Positions 21,569 through 53,661 are shown, counted from the stretch's first letter. The stretch: DNA of 64,000 nucleotides from Bacteroidota bacterium (GCA_035506295.1 DATJPR010000205.1:5053-69052); one strand, 5' to 3'. The notes: generated by a model not told the origin, from the letters alone. Made by a program: numbers and translations.

Positions 21569-21631
21569 AGCGAACCTCCAACAAATGAGTGGTGTGCGCC
21601 TGTCAAGGTACGTACGACAAGAAAGAACAGT

Positions 21632-22894: not shown

Positions 22895-22947
22895 AAGGGT
22901 ACCGCTCCCTCTGCAAGGGTGGGGACTGGACGGTACAGTGTTACGGA

Positions 22948-25423: not shown

Positions 25424-25435
25424 CGGACCTCCTCG

Positions 25436-26161
<726 letters not shown>

Positions 26162-26182
26162 TGGTCGTTCCTTGTTATACAC

Positions 26183-27463: not shown

Positions 27464-27503
27464 TGACGCTGCTCCTTCGAAAAATGAGGGATCGGTCGAT
27501 CCG

Positions 27504-28862: not shown

Positions 28863-29047
28863 CGTTGGCTCCAGGGAATATTTCTCGAAGGTCGACCCCG
28901 ATTTGGGGGCTCTATCCACCCCCTCAGGCGGGGGACCAGTGGTGGGTGGAAATGCACCAAAAACCGCCATTCTGAGGTCAAATACTACATCATTAGACGG
29001 TCAATAAAGGTGAAAGTTTCATCATGAAAAACGGAAAAACGGCCCGG

Positions 29048-37551: not shown

Positions 37552-39003
37552 CTAATGCACAACGCCGGTGATGGTGGCCGTCAACGGGTTGACCGCGTTG
37601 GGACCGCTCACCGTGATCGCGATGTTGACCGGCGTGCCGGCGGCGTCAACAATCCCCCACGAACCATCCTGGACGATCATCGAGAACTGCGTGAGGCCCG
37701 GTCCCTTGGACCGTGTATCGGGCAGCGTGACCCGTCCCTGGTCCCCGAAGATCAGGAAGACTTTGTTTTGTTCCACCCCGTCCATCGGTGGAGGCGGAAT
37801 GGTGGCGACGACGTTGATGGATGTTCCGGCCGCCAGCGGATTGCCGTTGATATCGTCGACAGTGAAGTTGATCGTCGTGGAACCGGCGTTGGGAATGCTG
37901 AACGTCGCCGGACTGATATTCTCGATGATTGCCCCGCCGCTCCAGACGATCAGCAGGCTGTCCTGCACCGCGACCCCATTTTGACCGAGGGTCCTGGCGA
38001 CCACCCAATGGAAGCCATTCCCGAACACCGGATCGGCGTTCGACCCCATGGGAAGCGGGTTGCCGCTGATAAGATCCACCGTTCCCTGGCCATCCTGCGT
38101 CGTGATCGCGCCGGACACCGTGCCCTGGATGACACCGGCTGTCGTTCGGAAATAGACCGCGGACGGTGAAGAAGGATTGCTGTACTTGTCCCCCACGATC
38201 ACGGAAATCTGGTCGCGCATGCCTGCGATGCCGAGCGCCGGGAAATTGAATTCCACGGCGGCAATCGTGAAGTGGGCCTGGTCCGGGAACCCTCCATGTA
38301 CCACCAGTCGCACCGGAGAAGACTGGATCGTCTTCGTGCCGGATACCACCGTCGCCAGGATCTCCACCACGCCGGCCCGTGTGCCCGAATTGAACGTCAC
38401 CGCAGCTGAGCCCGTAGCGTCGGTTTGGATTGTTGTCGGTGAAATGTACTCGCCGCCGCCCAGCGGCGTGACGATGCTGAGATTGATCGTCGCAGGGCTG
38501 AAGGCATCCATGGGATTCCCCAGGCTGTCGCGCACCTGCCAGCTCAGCACCGAAGTCTCTTTGCCGCCGACGCCGCTCACCGACAGCTCCGGGGGAGCGG
38601 CGCTGAGGAACGCGATCATCTGCGGCGTGCCGGTCCCTCCACTGACGGACTGGATCGAGCTCATGAGGACGTTCAGTTTTGTCGTCGAACCCTCGAACAC
38701 CTGAAGCGTCATCGTGGTGTCCCGATATCTGTCGCGGCTCATCGTGATGGTGACCGTGGCGATACTGTCGACGGTGAACTTCACGGTGTAAGCGCCGCTG
38801 GCATCGGTGGTCACCGACGGCGGGCTGGCGAAGTTACCGCTGACCGCGACGGATACACCTTCCAACGCGAGTCCGGACGTTTTGTCTTTGACCGTGCCGG
38901 AAATCGCCCCTTCACCGGCTGCCGGCGCCGTCGTGTCATTGCTGCACGACCACACTCCCATCGCCACCATGACGAGAAGCGGAACAAGAATACGATTTTT
39001 CAT
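37552..39003 (-). CDS. Lipoprotein with carboxypeptidase-regulatory-like and Ig-like beta-sandwich domains; co-oriented directly downstream of the secretin
   Basis: ATG at 39003 verified (MKNRILVPLLVMVAMGVWSCS lipobox). 'ISGTVKDKTSGLALEGVSVAVSG' is a CarboxypepD_reg-like motif. Several Ig-like repeats follow. Confidence 0.55.
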   Translation of the reverse strand: MKNRILVPLLVMVAMGVWSCSNDTTAPAAGEGAISGTVKDKTSGLALEGVSVAVSGNFASPPSVTTDASGAYTVKFTVDSIATVTITMSRDRYRDTTMTLQVFEGSTTKLNVLMSSIQSVSGGTGTPQMIAFLSAAPPELSVSGVGGKETSVLSWQVRDSLGNPMDAFSPATINLSIVTPLGGGEYISPTTIQTDATGSAAVTFNSGTRAGVVEILATVVSGTKTIQSSPVRLVVHGGFPDQAHFTIAAVEFNFPALGIAGMRDQISVIVGDKYSNPSSPSAVYFRTTAGVIQGTVSGAITTQDGQGTVDLISGNPLPMGSNADPVFGNGFHWVVARTLGQNGVAVQDSLLIVWSGGAIIENISPATFSIPNAGSTTINFTVDDINGNPLAAGTSINVVATIPPPPMDGVEQNKVFLIFGDQGRVTLPDTRSKGPGLTQFSMIVQDGSWGIVDAAGTPVNIAITVSGPNAVNPLTATITGVVH

Positions 39004-39034
39004 ACTATCCGTCCTTTCCATTCCTCGATCATCG

Positions 39035-40282
39035 TTAGCGTTGAGGTGTATTGTCGGGGATGATATGCTGCTCCATCCGCTCTTGTTCGCGCAGCCAGCG
39101 GTCGAAGATGCCGTCCTCCTTCTTCTTCTGGGCGATCCGTTCCTGGATCGTCGGCACAAGCTCCGCCTTCATGAGAATGATCAGCTCTTTCTTGTCGACC
39201 TCGTTCTTGTCATACCCGAAAACATACCGCAAGCCGAGCACATACCACGGCAGGTCCTTCAGGAACGGAACGCCGGTACGGACCGTGATGGTCTGATCGC
39301 TGTACAATCCCCCGATGATGCTTTCCTCCCCGTCGAGCAGGAGCAAATTGGTGTTCGCCCGGGTGCGGTTGACGATTGTGCTGATGGCCCCCGGCGTGAC
39401 ATCGCTACGCTCCACTTCTACTCTCAAATGGATGAAACTGACGCCTTGTTCCGTGATCACCTGGGGTTTGACGGTGATGATGGTTCCTGCGCTGTAGAAC
39501 TTGTCAATCAGGTTTCCCGCAAAGTCGCGTTCCCTGATGGAGAAGTCCTGGCCGACCTGAATTCTCCCTTCTTCGCCGGACCGGACGACCACCTGCGGAC
39601 CCGACAGAATTTCCCCGAGGTTATAGTTGGAGAAGATCTTCGCCAGGAAATCGATGTTGGCGAAGCTGACTCTCGGCGTCACGGATGTCTGAAACATGTT
39701 GTCGGAGACCTTGTCCGCCCCGCCGAAGCTCGAGGACACGGATACGTTGTTGGAGCTCTTCATGAAATTCCAGTTGAGGCCGACCTCATCCATTTTGGTG
39801 AGATTGACTTCCAGGAAATAGGCGTAGATCTTCACCTCCCTGCTGCTGAGGTTTGCAGGCTCTTCGTGGAAGCCGACCTTCCCCGTGGGCGCCTGCCCTT
39901 CAGCGTTCCCCTTCGCTTCGGTCGACGTCGAGATGATCTGAATATAGTCGTCGTATTCGTTGTACCACAGGTCGTTTTTCTTGCAGATCGCCTCCAGCGC
40001 GTCGCGCCACTGCATCCCCTGAATATCCAGCTTGATGGGGAAGGTGTGATGATCGGCGTCAATCACGATCTTGCCGGTGAACCGCTTGCTCACTTCGCTG
40101 ATAATCAGCAGCGCACGGTCAAACGGTGTCGTCGGCGCAATCGACACCAGCTCCTGCGGCGACGTGTACTGACGCAGCTGGCGCCGTTCCGCCTGACTTC
40201 CTCCCTGAACCTGTGCGAACGTCGGTCCCGCACAAATGACCATCAATGCCACGACGAAGAAAAATGACGTTTTCATGTCCAC
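39035..40282 (-). CDS. Type IV pilus / T2SS-family secretin (PilQ-like), short form of 415 aa
   Basis: Signal peptide, one N-domain, and a C-terminal secretin domain ('IIGGLYSDQTITVRTGVPFLKDLPWYVLGLRYVFGYD'). Confidence 0.8.
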   Translation of the reverse strand: MDMKTSFFFVVALMVICAGPTFAQVQGGSQAERRQLRQYTSPQELVSIAPTTPFDRALLIISEVSKRFTGKIVIDADHHTFPIKLDIQGMQWRDALEAICKKNDLWYNEYDDYIQIISTSTEAKGNAEGQAPTGKVGFHEEPANLSSREVKIYAYFLEVNLTKMDEVGLNWNFMKSSNNVSVSSSFGGADKVSDNMFQTSVTPRVSFANIDFLAKIFSNYNLGEILSGPQVVVRSGEEGRIQVGQDFSIRERDFAGNLIDKFYSAGTIITVKPQVITEQGVSFIHLRVEVERSDVTPGAISTIVNRTRANTNLLLLDGEESIIGGLYSDQTITVRTGVPFLKDLPWYVLGLRYVFGYDKNEVDKKELIILMKAELVPTIQERIAQKKKEDGIFDRWLREQERMEQHIIPDNTPQR

Positions 40283-40303: not shown

Positions 40304-41188
40304 TTAATTCTGCACGGGACCAAAGTTGATGCTCAATTCCACCTTGTTGATGATCCCCCCCTTGTTCAGCGTGCATTCCACCTTGCCATTCTGGGGATCA
40401 ATGCGGGTGACGTATCCGAGATACACTTCGTCGCCTTCCTGCAACGTGCGGATGGACTTCGTCTGGTCTTCGACGAACGCCTTCCCGGGGATGACAGCCT
40501 TCAACGATGACCGTTCGATCTCCACCAACGACCGCACGTTCGGCGGGATCCCGCTCGAGATGCCCGGCATGAACGGATCGACGTACAGCGGGTTCGGCGT
40601 GAGATCGCGGTCGATCAGCGAGCTCGAAAGCTCCGCTACCGTCGAATAGTAGGCCTGCACTGACATGTCAAACGTGACAAGCACCTCCCCCGCTTTCTTG
40701 TCGGTCGGCGCAACCTCGACACCCCGGAGCGTCAGCTGGCTCACCTTGTAGAGCCGCCTGCCGTTTTCGAGGTACCAGAGGAAGCGATAGAAATTGTCAA
40801 ACGTGCCCTCTCCCTTGAGCGAATACGAATTGAAGCCGAAGTTCCCTTTGTTCTGGTTGCCGGCGTATGCCATATCGAGGCGGATCGGGCCACTGATGTC
40901 GATCAGATGGCTGAAGTAGGAATAGCTCTCGGCCGTCGCATCGCTGGCGGGGATGATTTTGTTCCTCGCGCTCCACCGCTTCTGCGTGTCATTCAACGTC
41001 GTGCTCAGATCATTGAATTGATTGACGAGGTTCGGCGTGTTCTGGAGCTCGTCGTCGATCTTCTTGATCGTTGCCTGGATCTGCTTGATCTTCCGCGGTT
41101 GATTGAATGCCCGGATATAGGTCCCGACGGCGACGATCAGGAACAGCAGGATCCCGAGGGCAATGCTGTTTCGGATTTTGTACGACAC
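40304..41188 (-). CDS. Type IV pilus assembly protein; PilO-like N-terminal part fused to a PilP-like C-terminal domain
   Basis: N-terminal TM, coiled coil and ferredoxin-like core ('FDNFYRFLWYLENGRRLYKVSQLTL'). C-terminal approximately 90 aa form a beta-sandwich with a PilP-like pattern ('GDEVYLGYVTRIDPQNGKVECTLNKGGIINKVEL'). Confidence 0.55.
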   Translation of the reverse strand: MSYKIRNSIALGILLFLIVAVGTYIRAFNQPRKIKQIQATIKKIDDELQNTPNLVNQFNDLSTTLNDTQKRWSARNKIIPASDATAESYSYFSHLIDISGPIRLDMAYAGNQNKGNFGFNSYSLKGEGTFDNFYRFLWYLENGRRLYKVSQLTLRGVEVAPTDKKAGEVLVTFDMSVQAYYSTVAELSSSLIDRDLTPNPLYVDPFMPGISSGIPPNVRSLVEIERSSLKAVIPGKAFVEDQTKSIRTLQEGDEVYLGYVTRIDPQNGKVECTLNKGGIINKVELSINFGPVQN

Positions 41189-41213: not shown

Positions 41214-42788
41214 CTATTGACCCGCAGGACCCGCGGGAACTTCAACGGAATAATGGAACACTTCCTGGTCCCGGATTGCCTGGACGGTGACCTCTTTCAG
41301 GACCGCGTTATCGAACAGGCCGGTGAACCGCGGGATGCGCATCCGGTACTGGGCGAACCCGGTCAGCCCGATGTTGGCATCCTTGCCGGCGTTCACTTCC
41401 ACCACCCAGATTGAATTAATGTCTTCCACGCCATGGCTCAGACGCGTGAGGACCCGGCTCCACCGCTCGCTCCCTGGGACCAGCGAATCATACAGCGCGA
41501 GCGACGTCTTGTATTTCCCCAACTGGCCCTGCAACGATTCGATGGAGTTCGCCAGCTGCAGGTTTTCGGCCTGCTGGCTCTCCTTTAGCGTGAGCGACTC
41601 CCGCATCTCGCGCAGGTCCCTCGACTTCGAAGAGACTTGCCATGTGAAGAACAACGTCGAAGCAAACAACAGCATCAACAGCAGATAGCCGTGCCACGCC
41701 AGTTTGAATACCCGTTGCCCTTCCCGTACGACATCCGGCAACAGGTTCACGTGATAAAAGGCCTTGTTGTTCTGTTCGAGGGTCCGCCATGCGGCGCCGA
41801 TCGGAACGGCGAAGGCCGAGATTTCGGCCTGCTGCTCCGGCGGGAGCGGCGAGCTGTCGACCAGCGGCATCAGGAGATAATCGATCTCCTGGCCCGGCAG
41901 CTGCTGCAGCAGGAAGTCCTTGAAATCGATCCTGTGGCTCTCCCCTGCGAGCACGATCCGGTTGATCCGCGGGATCCCCAGATTGTCCTGCTCCAGAAGC
42001 AGCCTGCTGTACACCGTGTTGTGCAGGTTCGGTGAGTCGTATCCTTCGCCGAGGATCGGGGCGAACTGGTAGAAGTTCGCGCCGCGCATGAAGATCAAGC
42101 GCGTGTATTCGACCCCGACATAGATGATGACGGTGACCTCGTTCGGGCTCAGCTCGTAGTTGCGACGGACAACGTTCATCAACGACACGTCGGCGCTGTC
42201 GATCCCTGCAATCAGCGGCATGCGGCCGCCGAGGAAGTTCTTGATGCCTTCGAGCGAGTTGATGAGGCTCAGGCCGTCTTCCCGGACAATCGTGAGCAGG
42301 CCGCCTTCGTCGGTCTCGATCGTGTCGACGGCGTCGATCGCGGGCTGGAAAGCGCGGATATTGCGCAGCTCCTCCAGGATCCTCTGCTTCAACTTGAGCC
42401 CTTTCAAGCCGAAGTTGCTTTCGACACCATGATAGTAGATGGCAGGCTCAGCCAGACTGTAGATCAGCGAGTACTTGCTCACCGGGTACGATGCCAGCAG
42501 ACTCAACAGCACCGAGTCATTGTCATCGCTGTGCATCTCCGTGGTGGGACCCTCGGTCACGGGCAGCGATTGGAGCGAAAACCCGTCCGATCCGTCCAGC
42601 CCGGCCGACGCCCCGAGGTCCACGCTTTTGTGCTCCGCCATCTTGGTGGCAAGCGTTGCCGTGCGAAGCTCTTCGACAACCACCCTTTTCCCCCGGAGGG
42701 AGAGATGGGCCAGCTTGATATCGAGACCATCGACAAATAGTCCGATGACGCTGTTTTTACGACCTTTCATTTTCGCCATGCGTTTCAC
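41214..42788 (-). CDS. Type IV pilus assembly PilM (actin-like ATPase fold) fused to PilN (TM plus coiled coil plus periplasmic domain)
   Basis: About 350-aa PilM-like N-terminal region, a TM helix (HGYLLLMLLFASTLFFTWQV), then a PilN-like region. The track start is GTG; an in-frame ATG (MAKMKGRK) lies 9 nt downstream. Confidence 0.7.
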   Translation of the reverse strand: MKRMAKMKGRKNSVIGLFVDGLDIKLAHLSLRGKRVVVEELRTATLATKMAEHKSVDLGASAGLDGSDGFSLQSLPVTEGPTTEMHSDDNDSVLLSLLASYPVSKYSLIYSLAEPAIYYHGVESNFGLKGLKLKQRILEELRNIRAFQPAIDAVDTIETDEGGLLTIVREDGLSLINSLEGIKNFLGGRMPLIAGIDSADVSLMNVVRRNYELSPNEVTVIIYVGVEYTRLIFMRGANFYQFAPILGEGYDSPNLHNTVYSRLLLEQDNLGIPRINRIVLAGESHRIDFKDFLLQQLPGQEIDYLLMPLVDSSPLPPEQQAEISAFAVPIGAAWRTLEQNNKAFYHVNLLPDVVREGQRVFKLAWHGYLLLMLLFASTLFFTWQVSSKSRDLREMRESLTLKESQQAENLQLANSIESLQGQLGKYKTSLALYDSLVPGSERWSRVLTRLSHGVEDINSIWVVEVNAGKDANIGLTGFAQYRMRIPRFTGLFDNAVLKEVTVQAIRDQEVFHYSVEVPAGPAGQ

Positions 42789-42824: not shown

Positions 42825-44060
42825 TCAGTCTGCGGCGTTCCCCGGCATATTCAGGATCTGCTGGAGGCGCCTCTTATTGTTTGCCGACACCATCGCGTTT
42901 TCCAGCGAGATCTTCTTCCCGAAGTAGAGCCGTTTCAGATCCTGCTCCAGCGTGATCATCCCGAGATCGGATGACTCCGCCATCATCTGGTAGATTTCGC
43001 CTGTGTTGTTGTTTTTGATCGCCGCCCGGACAGACGGTGTCATCACCATGATTTCCTTCGCGAGGATCCGCTTGCCGTCGAGGCTCGGGACAAGTTTCTG
43101 AGACATGACGCAGCTGAGGGTGTCCGCCAGCCGCAGCCGAACGCGCTCCTGCTCGATCGGCGGCATTTCGCCGATGATCCTGTCCACTGTTTCCACGGCC
43201 GACCCCGTGTGCAGCGTTGAGAACACCTTGTGACCGCTATCGGTGATTTCGAGCGCGGTCATGATCGTATCCGGATCGCGCATTTCTCCGATGACGATGA
43301 TATCGGGGTCCTGGCGCAGCGCCTGGACAGCGCCATCCTTGAACGAGAGGACATCGCGGCCCACCTCGCGGTGTCGGATGATGCAGCGATCCGGCTTGTG
43401 CACATATTCGACCGGCGAGGCGATGATGATGACATGGCCGTCGACCGTGTGGTTGTTCGCATCGATGATGCTGTCGAGCGTCGTACTCTTGCCGGAGCCG
43501 GTGATCCCCGTGATCAACGTCAGACCCTGCTCGGTGTAGGCCAGGCTGAGAACCTTGGTGACATTCGCGTGCAGATCGAGATTCTTATAGGGACGGATGA
43601 CGTTGTTGATCGCGCGCATGTTGAGCGCGAGGTGGTCCAGATCGAAGGCTGCGTTGGCGCGGAAACGAAACATCGTATCGCCTTCAACGATGCTGTAGGA
43701 GAAATCGAGGTTGCGGTTCTCGTACAGGAAGAGGCGCTGGCGCTCGATCAGGATCGCCTGGATCAGCACGTTGAATTCGTCGAGCGTGAACTGACCGAGG
43801 TCCCGCGTAGGCTTTTTGTCTCCGAAAACGCGATACCAGATCCAACCGGCACACCCGTACCCGCCGATATCGATGTCCGACGCATTCACATGTGCCATGT
43901 TCCGGAGGTAACTGTCCATCAACATCCGGAGCGTCGTTCGCTCGGCGGGGGAAAGCTTGGCCACGAGGTCTCCGATCAGCATCTGTCGCTCCATGCCGGG
44001 GATAGAATCGGGGACCGTCGATGCGATCTCTCTCAAAACCTTTATGGCGGTCTGAATCAT
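42825..44060 (-). CDS. PilT/PilU-family type IV pilus retraction ATPase
   Basis: Walker A 'GITGSGKSTT', Asp box, Walker B 'IIVIGEMRD', His box 'TLHTGSA' and the PilT C-terminal region. ATG verified. Confidence 0.85.
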   Translation of the reverse strand: MIQTAIKVLREIASTVPDSIPGMERQMLIGDLVAKLSPAERTTLRMLMDSYLRNMAHVNASDIDIGGYGCAGWIWYRVFGDKKPTRDLGQFTLDEFNVLIQAILIERQRLFLYENRNLDFSYSIVEGDTMFRFRANAAFDLDHLALNMRAINNVIRPYKNLDLHANVTKVLSLAYTEQGLTLITGITGSGKSTTLDSIIDANNHTVDGHVIIIASPVEYVHKPDRCIIRHREVGRDVLSFKDGAVQALRQDPDIIVIGEMRDPDTIMTALEITDSGHKVFSTLHTGSAVETVDRIIGEMPPIEQERVRLRLADTLSCVMSQKLVPSLDGKRILAKEIMVMTPSVRAAIKNNNTGEIYQMMAESSDLGMITLEQDLKRLYFGKKISLENAMVSANNKRRLQQILNMPGNAAD

Positions 44061-44392: not shown

Positions 44393-45646
44393 CTACTCGT
44401 ACCAGGCCAGAATCTCGTAGGTTTTCGTCGTCGGATAGAATGGGGGAGACCGTGTCCGGAGACGTTCATCGTAGATAATCCGAACGGAGAGTCCGTGGGA
44501 AATCCCTGAGTCCGTCGTCGCCGCCAAATCCTGTACCGTCCAGCCGCCGAGTGTGGTGAGAATCCCGAGGGGGCGGGTTGTGAGGTTTTCAATCTTCACC
44601 GTGGAGGTGTCACTGAACAGCGAGGCCATGACCGTCACGTTGTTCCCGTTGGTGGTATGATGGTCCATGATCGTGATGTCACTGTTCGCCACGATGCCGA
44701 GCATGTCGGTAGACGCTGGATTCGTTCGCGGATCCGAATCGTACGTGATATTGTTCTCGATGTCGATTTTGCCGCGACTGGGGCTCGTGGTGTCGACTGC
44801 CCCGACGGTGTATTGCCCCTTGACCACCCCCTGAATGTGGATGACGCCGGTGCTGTTTTTCAATACGATGGCGCCGTTCGGTGCAAAGGCGGAGGCAAGC
44901 ATCGTGGTATCCGGCGCGGCGGCAGCCCCCTGATGATACTTGATGGAGTCTCCCGCAAATTTCAGGTAGACATCATTGTTCCCTGAAAAAGTCTTCCCTC
45001 CTGTCGCTGCTTTGCCGATCAATGTAGAAAAATCCTTGTTGATGGGAACGCTGACCCCATCTTCCTCGCCAGCATTAAAAATAGGATGTCCCGACCACGA
45101 TGTGCTGTCCACGCCCTTCCATGTTGTGACTTTTCCACCGAAATACGGCGTACCGTGCGTTGTGAGGGTGCCCTGGACATGCACGGGTCCACCAAGCGTG
45201 GAGTCGCCCGTTGCCCAATATACCGCCGCCGCCGAGGTTCCCGCGTACAGAGCAAACTTCGAGAAACTGCTGGGACGAAGGATGACCCTGACAGTGGACG
45301 TGCTGTCCCGGTACGTGCTCGTGCAGCGCATCGTGAGCCGGCGTTCGCCGGTGAGCGGGTCAACGCTCGACGTTGAATCCACCGATGCGGTGAACGTGCC
45401 TCCGTCGAAGGAGATGGGCGAGGTGTAACCGTCCCACCACGGGTTCCCGTTCATCTTCGGCGGATTCAGAAAGATGAAGTTGGCCGCGATGTTCGCGCCC
45501 GATATGGCGATATTTCGGGCGATCGCTCCCTCGTAGTAGTCCATGGCGTTGTCATACGCCTGCACGCTCGTGTCGGAAAGGTCCTTTCCCGTCCGAAGAA
45601 AGAGGAGGATTGTTCCAATGACAAGAATGAGCGCAGATTTCCCCAT
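44393..45646 (-). CDS. Pilin-like protein, 417 aa (PilX-like minor pilin or pilus-tip candidate); 'MG' class N-terminus
   Basis: ATG verified; an in-frame TAA lies 6 codons upstream; SD AGAGGGA. N-terminus MGKSALILVIGTILLFL. 'AYDNAMDYYEGAIARNIAISGANIAANF' resembles a PilX_N helix. Sits inside the pilus cluster. Confidence 0.4.
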   Translation of the reverse strand: MGKSALILVIGTILLFLRTGKDLSDTSVQAYDNAMDYYEGAIARNIAISGANIAANFIFLNPPKMNGNPWWDGYTSPISFDGGTFTASVDSTSSVDPLTGERRLTMRCTSTYRDSTSTVRVILRPSSFSKFALYAGTSAAAVYWATGDSTLGGPVHVQGTLTTHGTPYFGGKVTTWKGVDSTSWSGHPIFNAGEEDGVSVPINKDFSTLIGKAATGGKTFSGNNDVYLKFAGDSIKYHQGAAAAPDTTMLASAFAPNGAIVLKNSTGVIHIQGVVKGQYTVGAVDTTSPSRGKIDIENNITYDSDPRTNPASTDMLGIVANSDITIMDHHTTNGNNVTVMASLFSDTSTVKIENLTTRPLGILTTLGGWTVQDLAATTDSGISHGLSVRIIYDERLRTRSPPFYPTTKTYEILAWYE

Positions 45647-45657
45647 AAGATTCCCTC

Positions 45658-46299
45658 TTACCTGTTACTGTAATTTCGCGTCGACATCCGCATCTGCTGC
45701 CAGAATGCCGAGGAATATTGCGTGTTGAGCGGCGCCGTCTCCGAAATCGTTGAGGCGTACACGTTCTCGACACTCAGCGTGATCTGGATCGTTTGAATCC
45801 TTTGGAGGTTTGTTGCAGAAACCGGCGTCGGAATCTGATTCCCCGAGGCGTCGTAGTATTTGAGCTTGAATGAGGTTATTCCGAGGTTCGCACCCTTCGC
45901 CGGGACGACGTTCACTTTGCGGTAGAGAAATCTGTCTCTCGGATTCGGCGTCATCGAAAGCTCGCTCGCCGGACCGAGATAGTAGTAGATGCTGTCGATG
46001 TTTCCGTCCGGCCCGCCGTTGTCGGCAACGTCTGTCAGGAATTTGATCGAACTGGTGTCGGCGGCAAGGATCGCCTTCGTGGGGTCGGGCAGGTTGTTCG
46101 GCTCATTACAGAAGCCGATCTTTCGGAAATCATATTCGAGCAACCGCGTGACCTCCACAAGGTTCTCCTGGACGAGGAGATCCCCTTTCAGCGTCTGGAT
46201 ATTCTCGCTGTTGGCAACATTCCCCTGGAGCGTCATCAGGAAAAGCCACCCGAACACCACGATGGATCCGATGATATCCATGATTGTTTGACTGCCCAT
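45658..46299 (-). CDS. Minor pilin-like protein, 213 aa; 'MG' class N-terminus
   Basis: ATG verified; in-frame TAG 4 codons upstream; SD AGAGGGA. N-terminus MGSQTIMDIIGSIVVFGWLFLMTLQ, then a beta-rich C-terminal domain. Confidence 0.4.
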   Translation of the reverse strand: MGSQTIMDIIGSIVVFGWLFLMTLQGNVANSENIQTLKGDLLVQENLVEVTRLLEYDFRKIGFCNEPNNLPDPTKAILAADTSSIKFLTDVADNGGPDGNIDSIYYYLGPASELSMTPNPRDRFLYRKVNVVPAKGANLGITSFKLKYYDASGNQIPTPVSATNLQRIQTIQITLSVENVYASTISETAPLNTQYSSAFWQQMRMSTRNYSNR

Positions 46300-46308
46300 G
46301 GCATCCCT

Positions 46309-46833
46309 CTATCGAAAGTACCAATAACTATACACAGTCTGGTACGACACGGTATCGTTCATGCTCGGACTCGTGACCCACACTGTGAGACGTTTATGAT
46401 ACGTCTTCACCGATGACGTATCGATCGTGCTCGTCCCGAGGTTCAGGTTTACGTACTGGACTTTCACCTTGATGAGAAAATTCGCCGTGGGAAGCGCGAG
46501 CGTGTCGCCCGAGACCGTCTTCTGGAATCCGTTGTAGTCGTCTATGTCGTTGAACTTTGCATCAGAACCCGGGGTAGTTCCTTCCGTCCCATCAGGGCCG
46601 AGGGTGGTGCTCAGGTCATTGGGTGTGTAGACGTCGCCGGTGATCGTATGCTGATCGAAGGAAAGGGACGTCGCCTTCTCGACGATAGACGTCGCAAGCG
46701 ATGAAGCGACGATTTCCCACTCCGCGCTCTCAATAGCCTGGCGCTGGTCCAGCGTGTTCCTGTTGTTCGTCAGGAACAGCGACCCCAGCAGCGCAAGGGC
46801 GAGAATGGTAAGCAGGGTCTGGCCGGTCCCCAT
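46309..46833 (-). CDS. Minor pilin-like protein, 174 aa; 'MG' class N-terminus
   Basis: ATG verified; in-frame stop TGA 6 codons upstream; SD AGGAGGG. N-terminus MGTGQTLLTILALALLGSLFL. Confidence 0.4.
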   Translation of the reverse strand: MGTGQTLLTILALALLGSLFLTNNRNTLDQRQAIESAEWEIVASSLATSIVEKATSLSFDQHTITGDVYTPNDLSTTLGPDGTEGTTPGSDAKFNDIDDYNGFQKTVSGDTLALPTANFLIKVKVQYVNLNLGTSTIDTSSVKTYHKRLTVWVTSPSMNDTVSYQTVYSYWYFR

Positions 46834-46848
46834 GAGATTCCCTCCTGA

Positions 46849-48639
46849 TCAGTCGTCGGTTGTCGCCGAAGCAATTTCTTCGAGCGTGGTAGTTCCTTCG
46901 AGCATGCGTTCGATCCCAGCCCGCCTGAGCGTCCACATGCCGTCCTTCATCGCCTGCTGACGTACCGCCTCTTCATCGACTTCCTTCCCTGAACGGATGA
47001 TCAGAGTGCGGATCTCCTTCGTGAAGTAAAGCGCCTCGTGGATTGCCGCCCTCCCCTTGTACCCGCCGTTGCATTTGTCGCACCCGGCCGCTCCGTAGAA
47101 GGTGTGTGAATCGAGGTCTTCCTTTGTCAGGCCGAACTTGAGGTACGAGTCCCGGTCGAGCTCTTCCGGCGGGATCGGCCGTTTACAGGCCTTGCACAGA
47201 GTTCTGATCAAGCGCTGTGCCACGATAATATTGATCGCATACGCAATCAGGAAGGGCTCGATCCCCATTTTGTACAAACGGGATACCGCACTTGGCGCAT
47301 CATTGGTATGAAGTGTGGAGAATGTCAGGTGACCGGTATTTGCCAGCTTGATGGCAATCTCGGCCGTTATCTTGTCGCGCATTTCTCCCACCAGCACGAT
47401 ATCGGGGTCGTGTCGCAGGATGCCCCTGATCGCGTCGTCGAAACTCATCTTCGGGCCGATCTTCAGCTGACGCGCGCCCCTGATGATGTACTCGACCGGA
47501 TCCTCGACCGTCAGAACGTTGACCGACGGATCGATCACCTGATGCAGAGCGGCGACGAGGGTCGTGCTTTTGCCGCTTCCGGTCGGACCGGTCAGGATCA
47601 CGATGCCCTGCGGCTTGGCGATCGCCTTGTCGAAGAACTCGCGCGCCGGTCCACCCAATCCCAACTTGTTCAGGTCGGTGATGACTTTCCGGTCGTCGAG
47701 AACGCGGATGACGATGCTTTCGAATTTGTGTCGGAACTCCACGCCGACCATCGGCAGGATGGAGACGCGGAACCGGATCATGTGATCGTCGATCGAGCGC
47801 TGGATGAACCCGTCCTGTGCCGCCTCGCGTTCGAACCGGTCGACATTTTTCGACCGGTCTTTGACGACGGCGGCGACGGCCTCCGGCATCGTGCGTTCCT
47901 GCACATGCCAGAGACGGAGCGCTCCATCGATCCGGAACCAGAACTCGGTCCGGTTTCCTTCCTTCGCGGTGATGTGAATGTCGCTTGCGCCCTGCCGGAC
48001 AGCCTCCACCAGCGCGCCTTCGACAAGGTTAATGAGCGCGCTCTTGGTGATTTCCGCTTCGAGCGCTTCCTCGTCGACGTTCCCTTCGTCGTCCTCCTTG
48101 ACCTGGATACCGACATCGGACGATTCGAGCTGTTTGAGGAACTCGTTCTCCGGAGGAACAACCTGCTCGATGAGCGCCTGGACTTCCTTCATCCGACAGT
48201 AGGCGACCTCGTACTTCTTGGCGCCGAAGTTCCGGGCGATCAGCGGGATCTGACGGTCCGTCGGGTCCGCCGCGACAATGATCAGCTTGTCCGGCTGCTT
48301 TTCGTCGAACCGCAGCGGCAGCATGCGCGTCTGCGTCAGCATGTCGCGGACGTTCTGCGGCAGGGCCTCGATATACCGGCGGATGAAGTCGATCCGTGTC
48401 TGATCGATCTTCTCGTCGGCGAGGTAGATCTCGCGGAACGCGTACAGGTCGGCCACTTCGCGGAACACCGCATCGTGGTCTGCGTTGAAATCATTGACAA
48501 GAATCTGCCCGAGATTCCGCCGGTTCTTTTTCTCCTCCGAATCCTTGACGCGCAGGGATTTCTCGAGCGTCTCGTAGTCGATGATCCCCTTCTTCAGGAG
48601 AGCGAAACCGATTTTGTCTGTTATGTCCAGATTTGCCAT
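46849..48639 (-). CDS. pilB: Type IV pilus assembly ATPase PilB (GspE family) with N-terminal T2SSE_N domains
   Basis: Walker A 'GPTGSGKSTT', Asp boxes, Walker B, His box, and a tetracysteine motif (CKAC...C...CDKC). Confidence 0.9.
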   Translation of the reverse strand: MANLDITDKIGFALLKKGIIDYETLEKSLRVKDSEEKKNRRNLGQILVNDFNADHDAVFREVADLYAFREIYLADEKIDQTRIDFIRRYIEALPQNVRDMLTQTRMLPLRFDEKQPDKLIIVAADPTDRQIPLIARNFGAKKYEVAYCRMKEVQALIEQVVPPENEFLKQLESSDVGIQVKEDDEGNVDEEALEAEITKSALINLVEGALVEAVRQGASDIHITAKEGNRTEFWFRIDGALRLWHVQERTMPEAVAAVVKDRSKNVDRFEREAAQDGFIQRSIDDHMIRFRVSILPMVGVEFRHKFESIVIRVLDDRKVITDLNKLGLGGPAREFFDKAIAKPQGIVILTGPTGSGKSTTLVAALHQVIDPSVNVLTVEDPVEYIIRGARQLKIGPKMSFDDAIRGILRHDPDIVLVGEMRDKITAEIAIKLANTGHLTFSTLHTNDAPSAVSRLYKMGIEPFLIAYAINIIVAQRLIRTLCKACKRPIPPEELDRDSYLKFGLTKEDLDSHTFYGAAGCDKCNGGYKGRAAIHEALYFTKEIRTLIIRSGKEVDEEAVRQQAMKDGMWTLRRAGIERMLEGTTTLEEIASATTDD

Positions 48640-48686
48640 GAGATCATGTGCTCATGTGGGGGAAGCCGAACCCGGAAGACGACGCC

Positions 48687-50072
48687 CTACGTGAGTCGCA
48701 CGTCTTCGTGCACGCGCACGACCGGCGTCAGCGCCCCCATCCCGGGGTTCTTGGGCCGGATCGTCGCGGTCTCGGATGAGACGATGGTCAGGGCCGTCAA
48801 CACGATCATAATCACCATCGAGATCATGAGTTGAATGAAATCGATGGCGTTCCGCATCTTGTACGTCGTCTCCTTCTCATAATATTCCGCAAGCTGCAGG
48901 GCGGTGTTCTTCACCGTACCGGTTTCGGCGCCCGAATGGAACCGGGAAATCGCTGTCTTCGTGAAGACGCCCGTGGCTTCAAACGCCTCCGTGATGCCGG
49001 CGCCTTTCTCGATCATCAAGGGAATCGCGATGGACTTGATGCGGCTCTCCATGAACTTGTTCCCGCAGGCCTCGGAAGCCAGACGGATGACTTCGATGTT
49101 CTCTCCCGCGCCCGAGTACAGGGCGTAGAACACGCGGCAGAAAATCTCGATCGACTGTTTGTGCATCAAATTGCCGATGACGGGGACGTTCCACAAATAC
49201 CGGTCGAGGATGAATCGCCCCTTCTCCGTGGTAAAGAACCGCACCAGAAGCACGGTGGGGATGAGGATCATGAAACAGATGATCACAATATGCGCCGTGA
49301 GAAAGTCGCTGATCGCCAGCGTCGCTTTGGTCATCGGCGGCAGATCGATGCCGAACTTGCGGAACAATCCCGCTGTCGCGGGGAAGATGTATCCTACGTA
49401 ATAGACCACGGCGCCGAACAGCACGAACAGGGTGACAATCGGCGTGATCAACGCGGATTTCAAATTCTTTCTGAACTCTGTCTGGCGTTCCAGGAAACGC
49501 GCGGTGCTGTCGTAGATCTCCGCCATGTTACCGCTTTTGGAGGCCAGACCGAGCATGTGCGCGGTGAAGCGGCCGAGCACGCTCTCGTGCTTGATGAAGG
49601 CCTTTTCACTGTCCTTCCCCTGCTTCAGCTCGGTATTGATGTCCTTGATGGATTCCCGCAGCGTCCGGTTCTCGATGTCGTTGACCAGCAGCTGCATGAT
49701 TTCGTTGAACGGCAGCTTCTGCCTGATCAGGTCGGCGCTGACGCGGACGAACGTGACGATCTCCGCCGCCGGCGGCTTCATCTTGAAATCGATGAAGCGC
49801 TTCTGGACGGAAAGTACCCGGTATCCCATTTTCACCAGGGCCTCCTGCACCTCGGCCTTGGTGAACGCTTTTTGTTCTCCCGTGAAGGGTTTCTCCGTTC
49901 CCCTCTGCACCCTGTAGAGGAACGTCGACCGTCGGAGGATCTGCACGAGCTTGAATTTCCTCTGCACGGCGAGCTGCTGCGCCTTCTTCCTGGCCTGTCG
50001 GCCGTTTTCCGCTTCGATCACGCCCTGGACGGGCTTCCCTGCAAGCGAAATACCTTCGATCCTGTATTCCAT
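48687..50072 (-). CDS. pilC: Type IV pilus platform protein PilC (GspF family)
   Basis: Two T2SSF domains with 3 TM segments. ATG at 50072 verified (MEYRIEGISL). The track ORF extends to 50168. Confidence 0.85.
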   Translation of the reverse strand: MEYRIEGISLAGKPVQGVIEAENGRQARKKAQQLAVQRKFKLVQILRRSTFLYRVQRGTEKPFTGEQKAFTKAEVQEALVKMGYRVLSVQKRFIDFKMKPPAAEIVTFVRVSADLIRQKLPFNEIMQLLVNDIENRTLRESIKDINTELKQGKDSEKAFIKHESVLGRFTAHMLGLASKSGNMAEIYDSTARFLERQTEFRKNLKSALITPIVTLFVLFGAVVYYVGYIFPATAGLFRKFGIDLPPMTKATLAISDFLTAHIVIICFMILIPTVLLVRFFTTEKGRFILDRYLWNVPVIGNLMHKQSIEIFCRVFYALYSGAGENIEVIRLASEACGNKFMESRIKSIAIPLMIEKGAGITEAFEATGVFTKTAISRFHSGAETGTVKNTALQLAEYYEKETTYKMRNAIDFIQLMISMVIMIVLTALTIVSSETATIRPKNPGMGALTPVVRVHEDVRLT

Positions 50073-50249
50073 GAGCTCTTTCCGTCTGAGTGGTAAACAC
50101 ATTGATGAAACGCGCACAGGGCGGCACCCGACGATTACGCGGCCTTTCGCTTCGGCCGGATCCCCCACCCAGCCGAACGGTCGCCCATCGATCGCAGTGC
50201 CCCCCTGTTGTGCTGTACATCGTCCGGCCTGCTGCCAGGCCGCAAGTGC

Positions 50250-50657
50250 CTAGTGTCCTTCTGCTTCCACCGTGAACATGCTGTCCGGCATTACCTGCAT
50301 GACCACCTTGACGTGCTGCCCATCGTCCGCAACTTCGGTCCCAATCCCGGTGATCTTGACGAAGGACGTGCCTCCCGGAACGGGATCCGGATCGAGGGAG
50401 TAACTGCCGTTCAGATTGTTCACCCGGCTTGTGAGCTTCTGCATTGTCAGCCCAGAGAATGATCCACCGCCGCCACCAAGGGTTGTCGGCCTGCGAAAAT
50501 ACGTCTGAGCTCGTACCCCGAGCTGCGCAAGATCCATTTCCAGCTCATCGCGATTGCTCGACGCCGCTTGGTCGCGGAACATCGTCACACCGACGGCAAC
50601 AGCGACGGCCAGGACGACGGCAGCAATGGCGATGATTAACAACTGTTGGTTACCCAT
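50250..50657 (-). CDS. Major-pilin-like protein (135 aa), noncanonical 'MG-NQQLL' N-terminus
   Basis: ATG verified; in-frame TGA 2 codons upstream. N-terminus MGNQQLLIIAIAAVVLAVAVAVGVTMF, then NRDxxxxDLxxLxxRAQxYFRRPTxLGGGG. Located immediately upstream of pilC/pilB, as pilA normally is. Confidence 0.55.
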   Translation of the reverse strand: MGNQQLLIIAIAAVVLAVAVAVGVTMFRDQAASSNRDELEMDLAQLGVRAQTYFRRPTTLGGGGGSFSGLTMQKLTSRVNNLNGSYSLDPDPVPGGTSFVKITGIGTEVADDGQHVKVVMQVMPDSMFTVEAEGH

Positions 50658-50686
50658 GGATCATGACCTCAGCGTGAAACATCGGA

Positions 50687-50711
50687 CGGGCCTCCGGCTC
50701 CGGAGACCCGC
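50687..50711 (-). promoter_or_regulatory. Intergenic stem-loop between the two tandem pilin paralogs (possible attenuator or processing site)
   Basis: GGGTCTCCGG-AGC-CGGAGGCCC: a 10-bp stem (one G-U pair) with a 3-nt loop in the 66-nt spacer. No U-tract follows. Coordinates +/-2. Confidence 0.35.
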
Positions 50712-50723
50712 CTTCCAGTTCAG

Positions 50724-51143
50724 TTAGTGGACGACCACAAGGCTGTCCGGCCGACCCGCGTCGCGGCAGAAGATCTGCTGCGTCACTTTGTTGCCGTCAG
50801 GGGCGGTTTCCGTCCCGATACCCTGGATCGTTACCTGGTTCGCCGTACCGGCCGTGGTAATCGTGTACGTGCCGTTCGCATTTGCACCGCCCGGCATGTT
50901 CGTCAGCTTGGAAAGACCAGCCGCATCAGCAGTCAGTCCGACGAAGCTGTTGCCGCCACCGCCCAAAGCCGTCGGGCGACGATAGAACTGCTGCGCACGC
51001 GCAGCGAGGTTGACCAGGTCGTTCGACACCGCGTCGCGGTTCGCATTGACGGCGTTGTCCGAAAACATGGTGATACCAACGGCGACCGCAATACCGACCA
51101 CGATCACGCCGAGGATGATGAGCAGAAGTTGTTGCTGTCCCAT
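50724..51143 (-). CDS. Major-pilin-like protein (139 aa), paralog with an 'MG-QQQLL' N-terminus
   Basis: ATG verified; AGGAG SD 7 nt upstream; in-frame TAG 4 codons upstream. N-terminus MGQQQLLLIILGVIVVGIAVAVGITMF. Shares 'NRDxxxxDLxxLAxRAQxYxRRPTxLGGGG' with its paralog. Confidence 0.55.
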   Translation of the reverse strand: MGQQQLLLIILGVIVVGIAVAVGITMFSDNAVNANRDAVSNDLVNLAARAQQFYRRPTALGGGGNSFVGLTADAAGLSKLTNMPGGANANGTYTITTAGTANQVTIQGIGTETAPDGNKVTQQIFCRDAGRPDSLVVVH

Positions 51144-51418
51144 AACGCACTCCTATGAATTGATGATTGATGATGTTGCTGGATGTAGAGGAATATTGTT
51201 GTATTGTCGCGCTTCGCTCATGAACTCTGAAATCCATATTTCAAGACCTGTGCCACGGCCCTCGAGAATGCTGCAGGTCACACTGACCTTGAAATTTCTG
51301 CGATTCGCGTCAATACTCGCAGAATATGTCCTCGTTGGGGGTAAATTTTTCCGATGAAGTTTTTTCTTCTCGGCGCATCCCGCCCATGCTGACATGGGAA
51401 AAGGGCTCAAGAAAAAGG

Positions 51419-53233
51419 CTAGGTCAACACCGACCAGACTTCTTCCAGCGTTGTCAAGCCTGCTTTCACTATATCTGCGGCCGCCTCGACGAGAGTGCTT
51501 CCTCCATTTGCGCGCACGGCCGCCCGGAGTTCATCCTCCTCTGACGATCCTCCCTTGAGAATAAGCTCCTGCACCTGCGAGATCACCGGGAGGGTCTCGT
51601 GCAGCGGGACCCGGCCGTCGAACCCTTGCCGGCACTCGGAACAACCGACATTCTTGTAGAGGGGCACGCCCGGCATTTGCATTCCCAGTCGTGCAAGCCG
51701 GTCTGTTTCCGCAGTGGAGACGGTCTTGCATTTCGGACAGAGCCGGCGAACCAGGCGTTGTGCGTGGATCACCGAGAGCCCGCGAGACATCAGATACGGG
51801 TCAACGCCCATCGTCTGCAGCCAGACGACCGCGCCAGCGGTATCGCGCGCGGACATCGTGGCAAAGATCTGGCGCCCTTCAAGCGACAGGCGGAGCGCGC
51901 GGGTCGCCACGTCTCGATCCGTGAGTTCTCCAATTAACATGATGTCCGCGTCGGTCCGATCGAGCATGTCGAGCGAACCGGACTTGCTGAATTTCTGCGT
52001 CCGCCGGACGTGCGAGACGCCCTCGATCATCCACGAAGAAGCGCCCTCGAGAGCGATCGCGCGGACGTTAGCCGCCATCGCGAGACGCACGAGCATCGCG
52101 ATCGTGGTCGATCTTCCCGAACCGGAAGGGCCCGTGATCAGGAACAACCCTGTGTGGCGGAAGAGATATTCACGGAAGGCGGCGGCGGAAGGTTCGGGCA
52201 TGCCCAAACCCTCGAGCGAATAGAGAGCTTCGGGTTCCTGGTTCACCTCCACGACAACCGCCTCGAACTTCCCCGGATGGTCACGCAACGCCACCGGCAC
52301 GGAGGTGACGCGAAGGTGCACGGACCGGCCGTCGATATTCTTGCCGATGTGACCTTCCTGTGCGGCGAGGCGTTCATACCGGTCCATCCCCGGCGTACGC
52401 GCCTTCACTGCGGCGGCAACGGCCTCCGCACGAACCTCATCGATGGACATCCAGTGCGACAACGCGCCGTTGACGCGGAATTCCACGTCGGTCCTGCGCA
52501 CCGTCCTCGGGATCAAATGCACCGCTGTCGCGCCGGCCTTGATCGCTTCGTTCAGGATCTTCTCGAACAGCGGGGCGAGTTGTGCGCGCGCGATCTCGCG
52601 ATCCAGGATGGCATCGAGGTCAGGCTCGATGATCTCCGGCGGGACATCGGTGATGACCTGCGCCTGCTTCTGCGGAACTTTGTCCGTGGACATCGACTTG
52701 TACAGCTCATCCCATTCCCGTTCCTTCATGTAACAGATTTCGAATTTCTTGAAGGGGAACGTCCGGGCGACTTCCGTCACTTCCCGATCTGAAGGATTCG
52801 GCGTCACAATGACGAGCTTGTCGGCCTGGCTGTCGACGATGTCATACGGAAGGATCTTATGGCGCAACGCGATCGTCCGGACCGATTCCGGCAGCCCTCG
52901 AAGAAGCTTCATCACATCGGCGATGGTGAGCTTTCGGGGCGACCGGTCGTTGAGGTCGATGGTGCGGAACGCGTAGAACTGGGCGATTTGATATTGCAGC
53001 ACGTCGCGGGGAACTTTGAATTCTTCCTGGAGGATCTCAGTGACGCTTCGACGGTCGGCCGGGTTCTGCTGCTTCAGAGCGATCGCTTTTTGTGCCACGT
53101 CCGCGTGAACGATGGCGTTGCGGACGAGATGGTCGAGAAACGAGGCCATGAACGGCCTGGCACCGTTTCCGCCTGTCTTCGCGCTCCGTTCGTCCACTCC
53201 CTTCCCGACTACCGAGTTATCCATATTCGGCAT
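51419..53233 (-). CDS. Second GspE/PilB-family secretion ATPase (paralog of pilB)
   Basis: T2SSE_N repeats, Walker A 'GPSGSGRSTT', and a C-terminal tetracysteine (CPKC...CSEC). Confidence 0.85.
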   Translation of the reverse strand: MPNMDNSVVGKGVDERSAKTGGNGARPFMASFLDHLVRNAIVHADVAQKAIALKQQNPADRRSVTEILQEEFKVPRDVLQYQIAQFYAFRTIDLNDRSPRKLTIADVMKLLRGLPESVRTIALRHKILPYDIVDSQADKLVIVTPNPSDREVTEVARTFPFKKFEICYMKEREWDELYKSMSTDKVPQKQAQVITDVPPEIIEPDLDAILDREIARAQLAPLFEKILNEAIKAGATAVHLIPRTVRRTDVEFRVNGALSHWMSIDEVRAEAVAAAVKARTPGMDRYERLAAQEGHIGKNIDGRSVHLRVTSVPVALRDHPGKFEAVVVEVNQEPEALYSLEGLGMPEPSAAAFREYLFRHTGLFLITGPSGSGRSTTIAMLVRLAMAANVRAIALEGASSWMIEGVSHVRRTQKFSKSGSLDMLDRTDADIMLIGELTDRDVATRALRLSLEGRQIFATMSARDTAGAVVWLQTMGVDPYLMSRGLSVIHAQRLVRRLCPKCKTVSTAETDRLARLGMQMPGVPLYKNVGCSECRQGFDGRVPLHETLPVISQVQELILKGGSSEEDELRAAVRANGGSTLVEAAADIVKAGLTTLEEVWSVLT

Positions 53234-53280: not shown

Positions 53281-53661
53281 TCATGTTGACTGCATCCGCG
53301 CCGTACGTTCAAGGGAGTCGAGAAGTCTGAGGATCGTGTCCACAGGCGTTGTCTTCGAGAAAAAGAAATCCTTGTCGGGTTCGACGATGAGCGAACGCGT
53401 TCGTTCGTCATCGTACCCCGAGATAAAGATGAACGGAATGTCGGTCTTCTGACTGAATTCCCGGACGTAGCTGTGGAACCGCGCGCCATCGAGCGTGGGC
53501 ATGAAGACGTCCGACATAATGACATCGATCTTCTCCTCCTCAAGCAGCTCGCGAGCGACTTTGCCGTCCGTCGCGACTACTACGGCATGACCGGCATCCC
53601 GCAGGACATCTCCCATGACGTTCAGAAAGCCGCTTTCGTCATCCACCAGCAGTATTCGCAT
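53281..53661 (-). CDS. Single-domain response regulator (CheY-like receiver)
   Basis: 'RILLVDDE', 'IDVIMSDVFMP' (phospho-Asp), conserved T/S and K positions. 48 nt upstream of the second PilB-like ATPase. Confidence 0.8.
   Translation of the reverse strand: MRILLVDDESGFLNVMGDVLRDAGHAVVVATDGKVARELLEEEKIDVIMSDVFMPTLDGARFHSYVREFSQKTDIPFIFISGYDDERTRSLIVEPDKDFFFSKTTPVDTILRLLDSLERTARMQST

Follow-up and report, generated by a model that had tools for sequence, protein, structure and literature searches.

Five pilin-like genes on the minus strand between positions 44,393 and 51,143 of a 64,000-nt stretch of DNA from a Bacteroidota bacterium (GCA_035506295.1 DATJPR010000205.1:5053-69052; the whole stretch is called the window, and its numbering is used throughout) encode the predicted subunits of a type IVa-pilus-like system. 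These subunits are type IV pilins by fold and genomic context, not by the sequence definition based on the leader, Glu5 and N_methyl. Their N-terminus, consisting of Met-Gly, one to three polar residues and an uncharged helix, differs from that of every described type IV filament. To our knowledge, the class III signal peptide, Glu5 and a dedicated prepilin peptidase are taken to define all type IV filaments and to be universal to them, and tools that search for pilins rely on these features. The class III signal peptide is characterized by a hydrophilic leader of 6 to 26 residues, Glu5 and a sequence motif (PMC4471445). We put the probability at roughly one half that the pilins described here are made already mature and stay uncleaved, with Met1 to Gln5 in the register of Phe1 to Glu5. 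More tentatively, Ignavibacteria may be the first type IV filament lineage to do without a class III signal peptide as well as without a prepilin peptidase.

The five open reading frames (ORFs) lie on the minus strand where a preliminary description of the window had placed them, and all open with ATG-GGN, encoding Met-Gly. The major pilin A1 (50724..51143, 139 aa) has the N-terminus MGQQQLLLIILGVIVVGIAVAVG, and the second major-type pilin A2 (50250..50657, 135 aa, N-terminus MGNQQLLIIAIAAVV) is its 52%-identical paralog over the full length. Three larger genes on the same strand encode two minor pilin-like proteins of 174 aa (46309..46833, N-terminus MGTGQTLLTILALALLG) and 213 aa (45658..46299, N-terminus MGSQTIMDIIGSIVVFG) and a ComZ-like tip pilin of 417 aa (44393..45646, N-terminus MGKSALILVIGTILLF), in which a pilin domain is predicted to be combined with a beta-solenoid. 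The in-frame codons separating the upstream stop from the ATG number three in A1 (E-C-V), one in A2 (S), five in the 174-aa gene (S-G-G-N-L), three in the 213-aa gene (R-D-A) and six in the 417-aa gene (Q-V-R-G-N-L), and none of them is ATG, GTG or TTG. Because each upstream in-frame stop is followed by no alternative start codon before the ATG, the five N-termini cannot be extended, and mis-called starts are ruled out, as the preliminary description had argued.

Purine-rich Shine-Dalgarno-like motifs (AGGAG, GAGG, AGGAGGG and AGAGGGA) precede all five genes as described earlier, with a looser spacing of 4–9 nt 5' of each ATG in place of the 7–8 nt first given. The string AGGGAATCT[C/T]ATGGGG is common to the 174-aa gene (upstream of 46833) and the 417-aa gene (upstream of 45646) and consists of the Shine-Dalgarno motif and the conserved Met-Gly codons. 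It is weak evidence for the duplication that had been read from it, the two families showing no detectable homology beyond the N-terminal helix (local hhalign probability under 1%). A sigma-54-type -24/-12 site, TGGCAC-N5-TTGAA, is located at 51240..51255 on the minus strand, 112 nt 5' of the first pilin ATG. Motifs of this class, counted with up to 2 mismatches, are found upstream of 67 of the 125 family pilin genes from loci L001–L080 (54%), compared with 4.2% of random 300-nt windows. A sigma-54 promoter probably drives the major pilin gene, as in classical pilA genes.

The N-terminus of the major pilins is kept in homologues, in a pattern far from what chance would give. In a set of 115 full-length sequences, each representing one cluster at 50% identity, Met1 is present in 114, Gly2 in 106 (replaced by Ala in 7 and Met in 2), Gln3 in 90, Gln4 in 101 and Gln5 in 110, so that Gln5 is the most conserved residue after Met1. 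The residues before the helix are of fixed length, always M-G/A. Residues 6–27 are uncharged and hydrophobic in more than 92% of the representatives, the uncharged stretch having Gly at positions 12, 17 and 23. Within positions 1–24, a basic residue occurs in 6 of the 115 (>92% uncharged) and an acidic one in 3, leaving 112 major pilins with no acidic residue at all in the region where Glu5 of canonical type IV pilins would be found. Of the 120 homologues closest to the 139-aa protein, 114 start with MGQQQL, and MGQQQLLL is the near-invariant, uncharged N-terminus of the family.

Members of the 174-aa family start with M-[G/N/S]-[L/T]-[G/A]-Q followed by a hydrophobic helix, M1, G4 and Q5 each being present in at least 90%. 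The 213-aa family begins with MG[S/A/N/T/G]Q[T/V]I.D or with M[S/A]V[M/L]LD, M1 and the Asp being invariant; the second subfamily has no Gly. The 417-aa family (n = 120) begins with MG[K/R] in 81 members, MGG[K/R] in 18 and MSG[K/R] in 8, in addition to MFGK, MVGK, MNGK and MAGR variants. An acidic residue, Asp8, is found in the 213-aa family and none in the 417-aa family. About 30 syntenic loci contain orthologues of the three larger genes with N-termini just as short, and in most of these loci a stop lies no more than 12 codons upstream. The residues before the helix are M-G in the major, 213-aa and 417-aa proteins and M-G-T-G in the 174-aa protein; a hydrophilic leader of about 6–26 residues ending in Gly is seen in none of the five, and the hydrophobic alpha1N segment of about 21 residues typical of type IV pilins is present. 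The substrate rule of methionine aminopeptidase (MetAP) was considered as the sole cause of Gly2 and rejected, since the MFGK, MNGK and MNLGQ variants keep the Gly but not its position 2.

Structure prediction by AlphaFold2 has shown that the 139-aa protein is modelled as a helix (residues 2–55) followed by a four-stranded sheet, with a predicted local distance difference test (pLDDT) score of 81.9. The best match of this model in the PDB by Foldseek is the full-length PAK pilin (probability 0.99, template-modelling (TM) scores 0.63/0.61), its best matches being full-length pilins and assembled pili. The model of the 417-aa protein (pLDDT 88) consists of a helix (residues 2–60), a four-strand sheet and a large beta-rich domain, and its strong matches in the PDB are confined to the three chains of Thermus thermophilus ComZ (6qvi; E 5e-10 to 4e-9, probability 1.00), followed by the ice-binding proteins 6eio and 4nu2. 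The protein also matches Pfam DUF4900 (1.4e-6). Both models place a long N-terminal helix on an antiparallel beta-sheet, and that of the 417-aa protein adds a beta-solenoid on the pilin domain, as in ComZ-like tip pilins. The predicted structures confirm the pilin fold of the 139-aa and 417-aa proteins, for which the pilin nature proposed in the preliminary description is upheld by fold; the 174-aa and 213-aa proteins are called pilin-like from their N-terminal helix and conserved synteny, both lying in a constant place between PilB and the ComZ-like gene.

The sequences themselves do not betray this fold. Scanning of the five proteins with hidden Markov models, which had been proposed earlier, gave no Pfam match of the N_methyl, T2SSG or Flp type and no NCBIfam pilin match meeting the description at E ≤ 1; the best sub-threshold matches were ComP_DUS (0.011) and GspG (0.13), both far below the cut-offs. 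Profile searches against all PDB sequences were empty for the 174-aa and 213-aa families and gave no meaningful match for the 417-aa family; the major pilins matched only Geobacter and Streptococcus sanguinis pilins, at E 0.4–1.3. Local hhalign comparisons of the four family alignments with Escherichia coli GspG, GspH, GspI, GspJ and GspK and with each other gave probabilities of at most 4.5%, those to GspG–K being under 3%. On these comparisons, there is no sequence evidence linking the families to pseudopilins or to one another beyond the N-terminal helix.

No prepilin peptidase gene is co-located with these pilin genes. Pfam scans of the larger ORFs and a phmmer search with E. coli GspO against ORFs of at least 80 aa found no A24 peptidase in the window, and the only small polytopic membrane ORF there (13850-14332) is CopD/DUF2269-like; the earlier observation that no PilD gene lies in the 64 kb stands. 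The search was extended to 78 related loci, taken as 20-kb neighbourhoods (10 kb on each side): phmmer with GspO against 7,075 ORFs from these loci (1.3 Mb) and the window gave nothing at E ≤ 10, and nothing A24-like was found among the small polytopic membrane ORFs of the 78 loci, which number ten and are all singletons. Two matches to the motif GxGD[..]K were rejected, both lying in non-coding frames. Apart from PilC, no polytopic membrane gene belongs to the cluster here or in about 35 syntenic loci, and N-termini of the canonical G^FTLIE type (the caret marks the cleavage site) are absent from the 1.3 Mb of related loci. A tblastn search of plasmids with GspO, made to obtain an A24 bait from the Fibrobacterota–Chlorobiota–Bacteroidota (FCB) group, returned Proteobacteria only. 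In agreement with this picture, genome papers on Ignavibacteria have reported pilB, pilC, pilT and pilQ but 'no pilA and pilD', and the Melioribacter genome paper found neither pilA nor pilD in the complete M. roseus genome. The major pilin family explains the missing pilA of the Melioribacter report.

From 53661 down to 37552, all genes are on the minus strand and form one cluster, which, judged by gene content and order, is the core locus of a type IVa-pilus-like machine conserved across Ignavibacteria. It contains PilB-type and PilT-type ATPases, a PilC platform and a secretin. PilD, which is encoded with pilB and pilC in type IVa systems, is not part of it. The gene order from the response regulator to PilO is repeated in about 35 of the 78 loci, from Ignavibacteriota metagenome-assembled genomes (MAGs), the tandem major-pilin pair is kept in most related loci, and the place of the 174-aa gene, between PilB and the 213-aa gene, is constant. 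The first gene of the cluster encodes a single-domain response regulator (53281..53661; Pfam Response_reg 9.8e-18), which also stands upstream of the PilB paralog in most syntenic loci. This paralog, PilB2 (51419..53233; T2SSE 1.3e-57), belongs to the PilB/GspE family and has a degenerate ATPase site: the Walker A motif reads GSGRST, with Arg for Lys, GELTD stands in place of GEMRD, and the His box has disappeared. About 20 orthologues have a P-loop degraded yet further (GGGRTA, KSGASM, HYALRT). PilB2 looks like a conserved pseudo-ATPase and perhaps serves as a regulator or scaffold; its N-terminus has a weak MshEN-like match.

The platform protein PilC/GspF (listed as 48687..50168; T2SSF 5.9e-29 in two stretches) is likely to start at the Met of MEYRIEG near 50072. 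The PilB extension ATPase (46849..48639; T2SSE 1.1e-98) has intact GSGKST, GEMRD and TLHTND motifs. The PilT-like retraction ATPase (42825..44060; T2SSE 2.5e-34 over residues 158–328) retains GSGKST and the His box and carries an N-terminal extension of about 150 aa with no family match. These are followed by a PilM–PilN-like fusion of 524 aa (41214..42788; weak match to the NCBIfam model for the Akkermansia Amuc_1101-type PilM-like family, 2.3e-7, far below the cut-off) and a PilO/GspM-like bitopic protein of 294 aa (40304..41188; weak match to NCBIfam GspM, 7.5e-4). Neither has a Pfam match, and the putative assignments draw on the sub-threshold matches and the conserved position; the two appear as very divergent alignment-complex proteins. 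The secretin of the PilQ/GspD family (39035..40282) matches Pfam Secretin (1.2e-26) and TIGR02515 PilQ (1.7e-22). A protein with Pfam Big_1 and CarboxypepD_reg domains is encoded 3' of it (37552..39159) and also lies behind the secretin in loci L030, L033, L035, L042 and L050; it may be an outer-membrane or periplasmic accessory of the pilus system.

The other larger ORFs of the window encode efflux pumps, an extracytoplasmic function (ECF) sigma/anti-sigma pair, UvrA, FeoB and similar proteins, and no ComEA or ComEC was seen among the window ORFs in the family scans. At 20309-28970, on the minus strand, four tandem FtsX/MacB-type permease paralogs of about 407–475 aa each are followed by an ABC ATPase, an HlyD-family adaptor and an outer-membrane efflux protein. 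A deoxyhypusine synthase homologue (55294-56397, minus strand; Pfam DS 6.4e-70) is encoded, in this bacterial genome, next to the flanking genes of the pilus cluster.

The major pilin family is large. In a collection of 5.8 billion proteins, 3,899 homologues of the 139-aa protein were found at E ≤ 1e-3, and a profile search of 1.84 billion cluster representatives recovered 1,901 clusters (at 50% identity) at E ≤ 1e-3, 1,120 of them at E ≤ 1e-10. For nearly every full-length member the alignment begins at residue 1. Major pilins, being exposed at the surface, usually diversify quickly; the major pilin encoded at 50724-51143 is conserved over its full length, globular domain included, and its 120 closest homologues (90%-identity clusters) are 66–97% identical to it. 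Among GTDB species genomes, the family is found in MAGs labelled Ignavibacteriota, Ignavibacteriae, Ignavibacteriales or 'Bacteroidota', with several pilin loci per genome, and the few MAGs with other labels are probably mis-binned. The clusters of ten divergent representatives contain no cultured organism, only entries named 'hypothetical protein' and one KSB1 MAG. A divergent member from a candidate division KSB1 MAG (P0215), starting with MEFSQKLLYVSGLIIVG, has no Gly2 and keeps Gln5, and with it the major pilin family extends beyond Ignavibacteria. Some members are annotated as 'PilE' in the JGI pipeline, and at NCBI they are hypothetical proteins. No description of the family was found in the searched literature on leaderless pilins, Ignavibacteria pili or class III signal peptides of Bacteroidota/Chlorobi; the I. 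album genome paper leaves pili unmentioned, and the supplements of the type IV filament (TFF) survey name no Ignavibacteria genomes.

Two further arrangements of the family were noticed. In a related genome whose pilin is 94% identical (loci L002 and L004, 10001-16913), an orphan gene for a major pilin is found next to another, divergent set of three minor pilins of 177, 205 and 425 aa, whose N-termini are MNTGHMIQ..., (V)GTILDLL... and MVGKAGLIY..., and genes for a histidine kinase and a sigma-54 activator, PilS/PilR-like, adjoin this triple. Because of this orphan major gene and second minor triple, the genomes hold several pilin sets; other loci among the 78 also carry an orphan major pilin. 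Without the MGQQQ helix, the globular domain typical of the major pilins (NRDA..DL..LA.RAQ.YYRRP..LGGGG.SF.GL) is also seen in P0146, P0189, P0166, P0173 and P0240, in lipoproteins with one to three tandem copies and behind an N-terminal module of a zinc ribbon and two transmembrane segments.

Compared with the type IVa pili of Pseudomonas aeruginosa, Neisseria, Myxococcus and Thermus (PilA-PilBCD-PilT-PilMNOPQ), the present pilins have 2 residues in place of a 6–26-residue leader, have Gln5 or nothing in place of Glu5, and fail to match the N_methyl/TIGR02532-type models that type IVa pilins match. Their locus lacks pilD and has an additional degenerate PilB paralog, and the major pilin, at 66–97% identity among the 120 closest clusters, is unusually conserved. 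The competence pilin ComZ of T. thermophilus (PDB 6QVI; with PilA1-3) has a beta-solenoid inserted into its pilin domain, and the closest relative of this solenoid is the ice-binding protein 4NU2; ComZ is presumed to occupy the tip of the pilus and to bind DNA, and was missed by PilFind (PMC6561018). The 417-aa protein is likewise predicted to combine a pilin domain with an ice-binding-related beta-solenoid, is missed by pilin sequence tools and is encoded beside smaller minor pilins, but it is only 11–15% identical to ComZ, with a global TM-score of 0.31–0.38, and about 100 residues shorter. The 'T2SS' (type II secretion system) of Cytophaga hutchinsonii and Flavobacterium (CHU_3191-3202), which clusters with type IVa pili in phylogenies, is also an FCB-group machine with divergent (pseudo)pilins and PilM/N/O-like proteins without Pfam matches (PMC5553014, PMC6668835). 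However, it has a Peptidase_A24 gene, CHU_3197, between T2S-E and T2S-G (PMC5553014), whereas the present locus has none and possesses PilT.

Archaeal type IV pilins and archaellins resemble the present proteins in that Glu5 is often absent and bacterial pilin models miss their motifs (PMC4471445); they differ in having a charged leader and the PibD, FlaK or EppA peptidases, while the machinery here is bacterial (secretin, PilT, PilM/N/O). Loci for mannose-sensitive haemagglutinin (MSH) pili also have no prepilin peptidase of their own (PMC6668835), but MSH pilins carry normal class III signal peptides and are processed by the peptidase of a co-resident system. As for type II secretion, the cluster contains neither a GspG pseudopilin nor GspO, and the retraction ATPase missing from such systems is present here as PilT. 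Nor does it resemble a Tad/Flp system with Flp pilins of about 50–80 aa, TadA/B/C and TadV: the pilins are 135–417 aa long, have no G^xxxxEY motif and no Flp Pfam match, and the machinery is of the PilB/PilC/PilT type.

If these pilins are indeed born mature, as we infer, they would be inserted as N-in, uncharged signal anchors through SRP (the signal recognition particle) and Sec, no prepilin peptidase cut would take place, and they would polymerise into a pilus with (formyl-)Met1 in place of N-methyl-Phe1 and Gln5 in place of Glu5. The binding of SRP can shield N-terminal signal anchors from deformylase and MetAP. Because the nascent chain is shielded by SRP in this way, the N-formyl group may stay on the N-terminus and keep it uncharged, which is our own extrapolation from general knowledge. 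Since there would then be no charged N-terminal amine to neutralise, the buried Glu5 could be replaced by its amide, Gln. The three minor pilins would probably prime the filament and sit at its tip, and a ComZ-like pilin with its predicted beta-solenoid would suit adhesion or DNA binding.

The register of the conserved residues favours this reading, Gln5 (110/115) being better conserved in the major pilins than Gly2 (106/115), Gln3 or Gln4. The 174-aa family, which has no detectable homology to the major pilins outside the helix, also has its Gln at position 5 from Met1, with Gly at position 4. The Gln lands on the canonical Glu5 position in both families when counted from Met1, and not when counted from Gly. 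In the 417-aa family position 5 is not polar, in line with what tip pilins of the GspK/ComZ type would lead one to expect. The 213-aa subfamily without Gly would offer no cleavage site, which also favours pilins born mature. Cleaved leaders vary in length from 6 to 26 aa (PMC4471445), whereas the M-G/A of the major pilins is fixed.

A possible, somewhat less probable, alternative is that the machine is the same and that the one to four residues before the helix, ending in Gly, amount to a class III leader of minimal length (M-G^QQQ, M-x-x-G^Q, M-(x)-G^K/R) removed by a peptidase encoded elsewhere. Mature major pilins would then start with Gln, which could cyclise to pyroglutamate, and since an N-terminal pyroglutamate is uncharged, Glu5 would be unnecessary in this model as well. 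Its strongest point is the 417-aa family, in which the unit Gly-[Lys/Arg], preceded by M or by M and one more residue, survives the one-residue insertion before it; this pattern looks like a -1 Gly rather than an outcome of the MetAP rule. A Gly (or Ala) is conserved two to four residues from the start in four of the five families, and the -1 Gly is the one residue absolutely required by prepilin peptidases, whose substrates have in some systems had their leaders shortened with processing retained (PMC4471445). Borrowing of a peptidase would have a precedent in the MSH-type loci (PMC6668835). On the other side stand the lack of an A24 gene in the window and near any of the 78 loci, the failure to find pilD in the complete M. 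roseus genome, a leader that neither carries a charge nor varies in length across more than 1,000 clusters, a Gln register that is inconsistent when counted from Gly (+3 in the major pilins, +1 in the 174-aa family), and the 213-aa subfamily with no Gly.

Apart from this Gly, several other points weigh against pilins that are born mature. The conserved acidic residue of the 213-aa family is at position 8 or 6, not 5. The peptidase search spans the 64 kb and the 20-kb neighbourhoods only, and the divergent A24 gene of Cytophaga, CHU_3197, was at first called hypothetical (PMC5553014). A prepilin of the canonical kind, resembling that of Geobacter, has been reported from one Ignavibacteriales MAG (PMC7399161); PilD is therefore probably present in part of the class, and the report also speaks for the minimal leader. 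The proposal is built on sequences and models, and the alignments behind the two AlphaFold2 models are shallow (18 sequences for the 139-aa protein and 33 for the 417-aa protein).

It is improbable that the five proteins are not pilus subunits at all, either as non-polymerising membrane proteins or as Sec substrates. In the former case, which we consider unlikely, they would be bitopic inner-membrane proteins accompanying the ATPase/secretin machine, for example as parts of a pseudopilus-free secretion or DNA-uptake system. The five proteins do fail every sequence definition of a type IV pilin, and the globular domain of the major family does occur in non-pilin architectures. However, a full type IVa pilin fold with a 55-residue alpha1 helix is predicted, the conservation of the hydrophobic helix goes far beyond what an ordinary membrane anchor needs, the genes occupy the positions of pilA and minor-pilin genes between PilB, PilC and PilT, the set includes a ComZ-like tip pilin, and the tandem major genes have putative sigma-54 promoters. 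A Sec (class I) signal peptide, or mis-called starts, with soluble periplasmic or secreted mature proteins, is rejected as highly improbable: small residues (AVAVG-I) do follow the hydrophobic N-terminal stretch, but longer N-termini are excluded by the in-frame stops without alternative starts, a positively charged n-region is absent, the segment is near-invariant across more than 1,000 clusters whereas signal peptides drift, and in the AlphaFold2 models it forms the front half of a single unbroken pilin alpha1 helix.

The family described here numbers at least 1,900 clusters (50% identity) from a lineage widespread in soil and sediment, and it has the fold and the machine of type IV pili and lacks their sequence hallmarks; current surveys accordingly count too few pili. 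The family is a natural experiment on the role of the leader, of N-methylation and of Glu5. If assembly works without cleavage, models of how pilins are extracted from the membrane and how charge is neutralised inside the core of the filament will have to be revised. If the pilins are made mature, the Phe1–Glu5 charge pair and the PilD step would be one solution among several, and prepilin peptidase would not be a universal anti-pilus target. The predicted tip pilin, similar to ComZ, is a hint that this ecologically abundant and poorly studied group of bacteria may use its pili for DNA uptake or adhesion.

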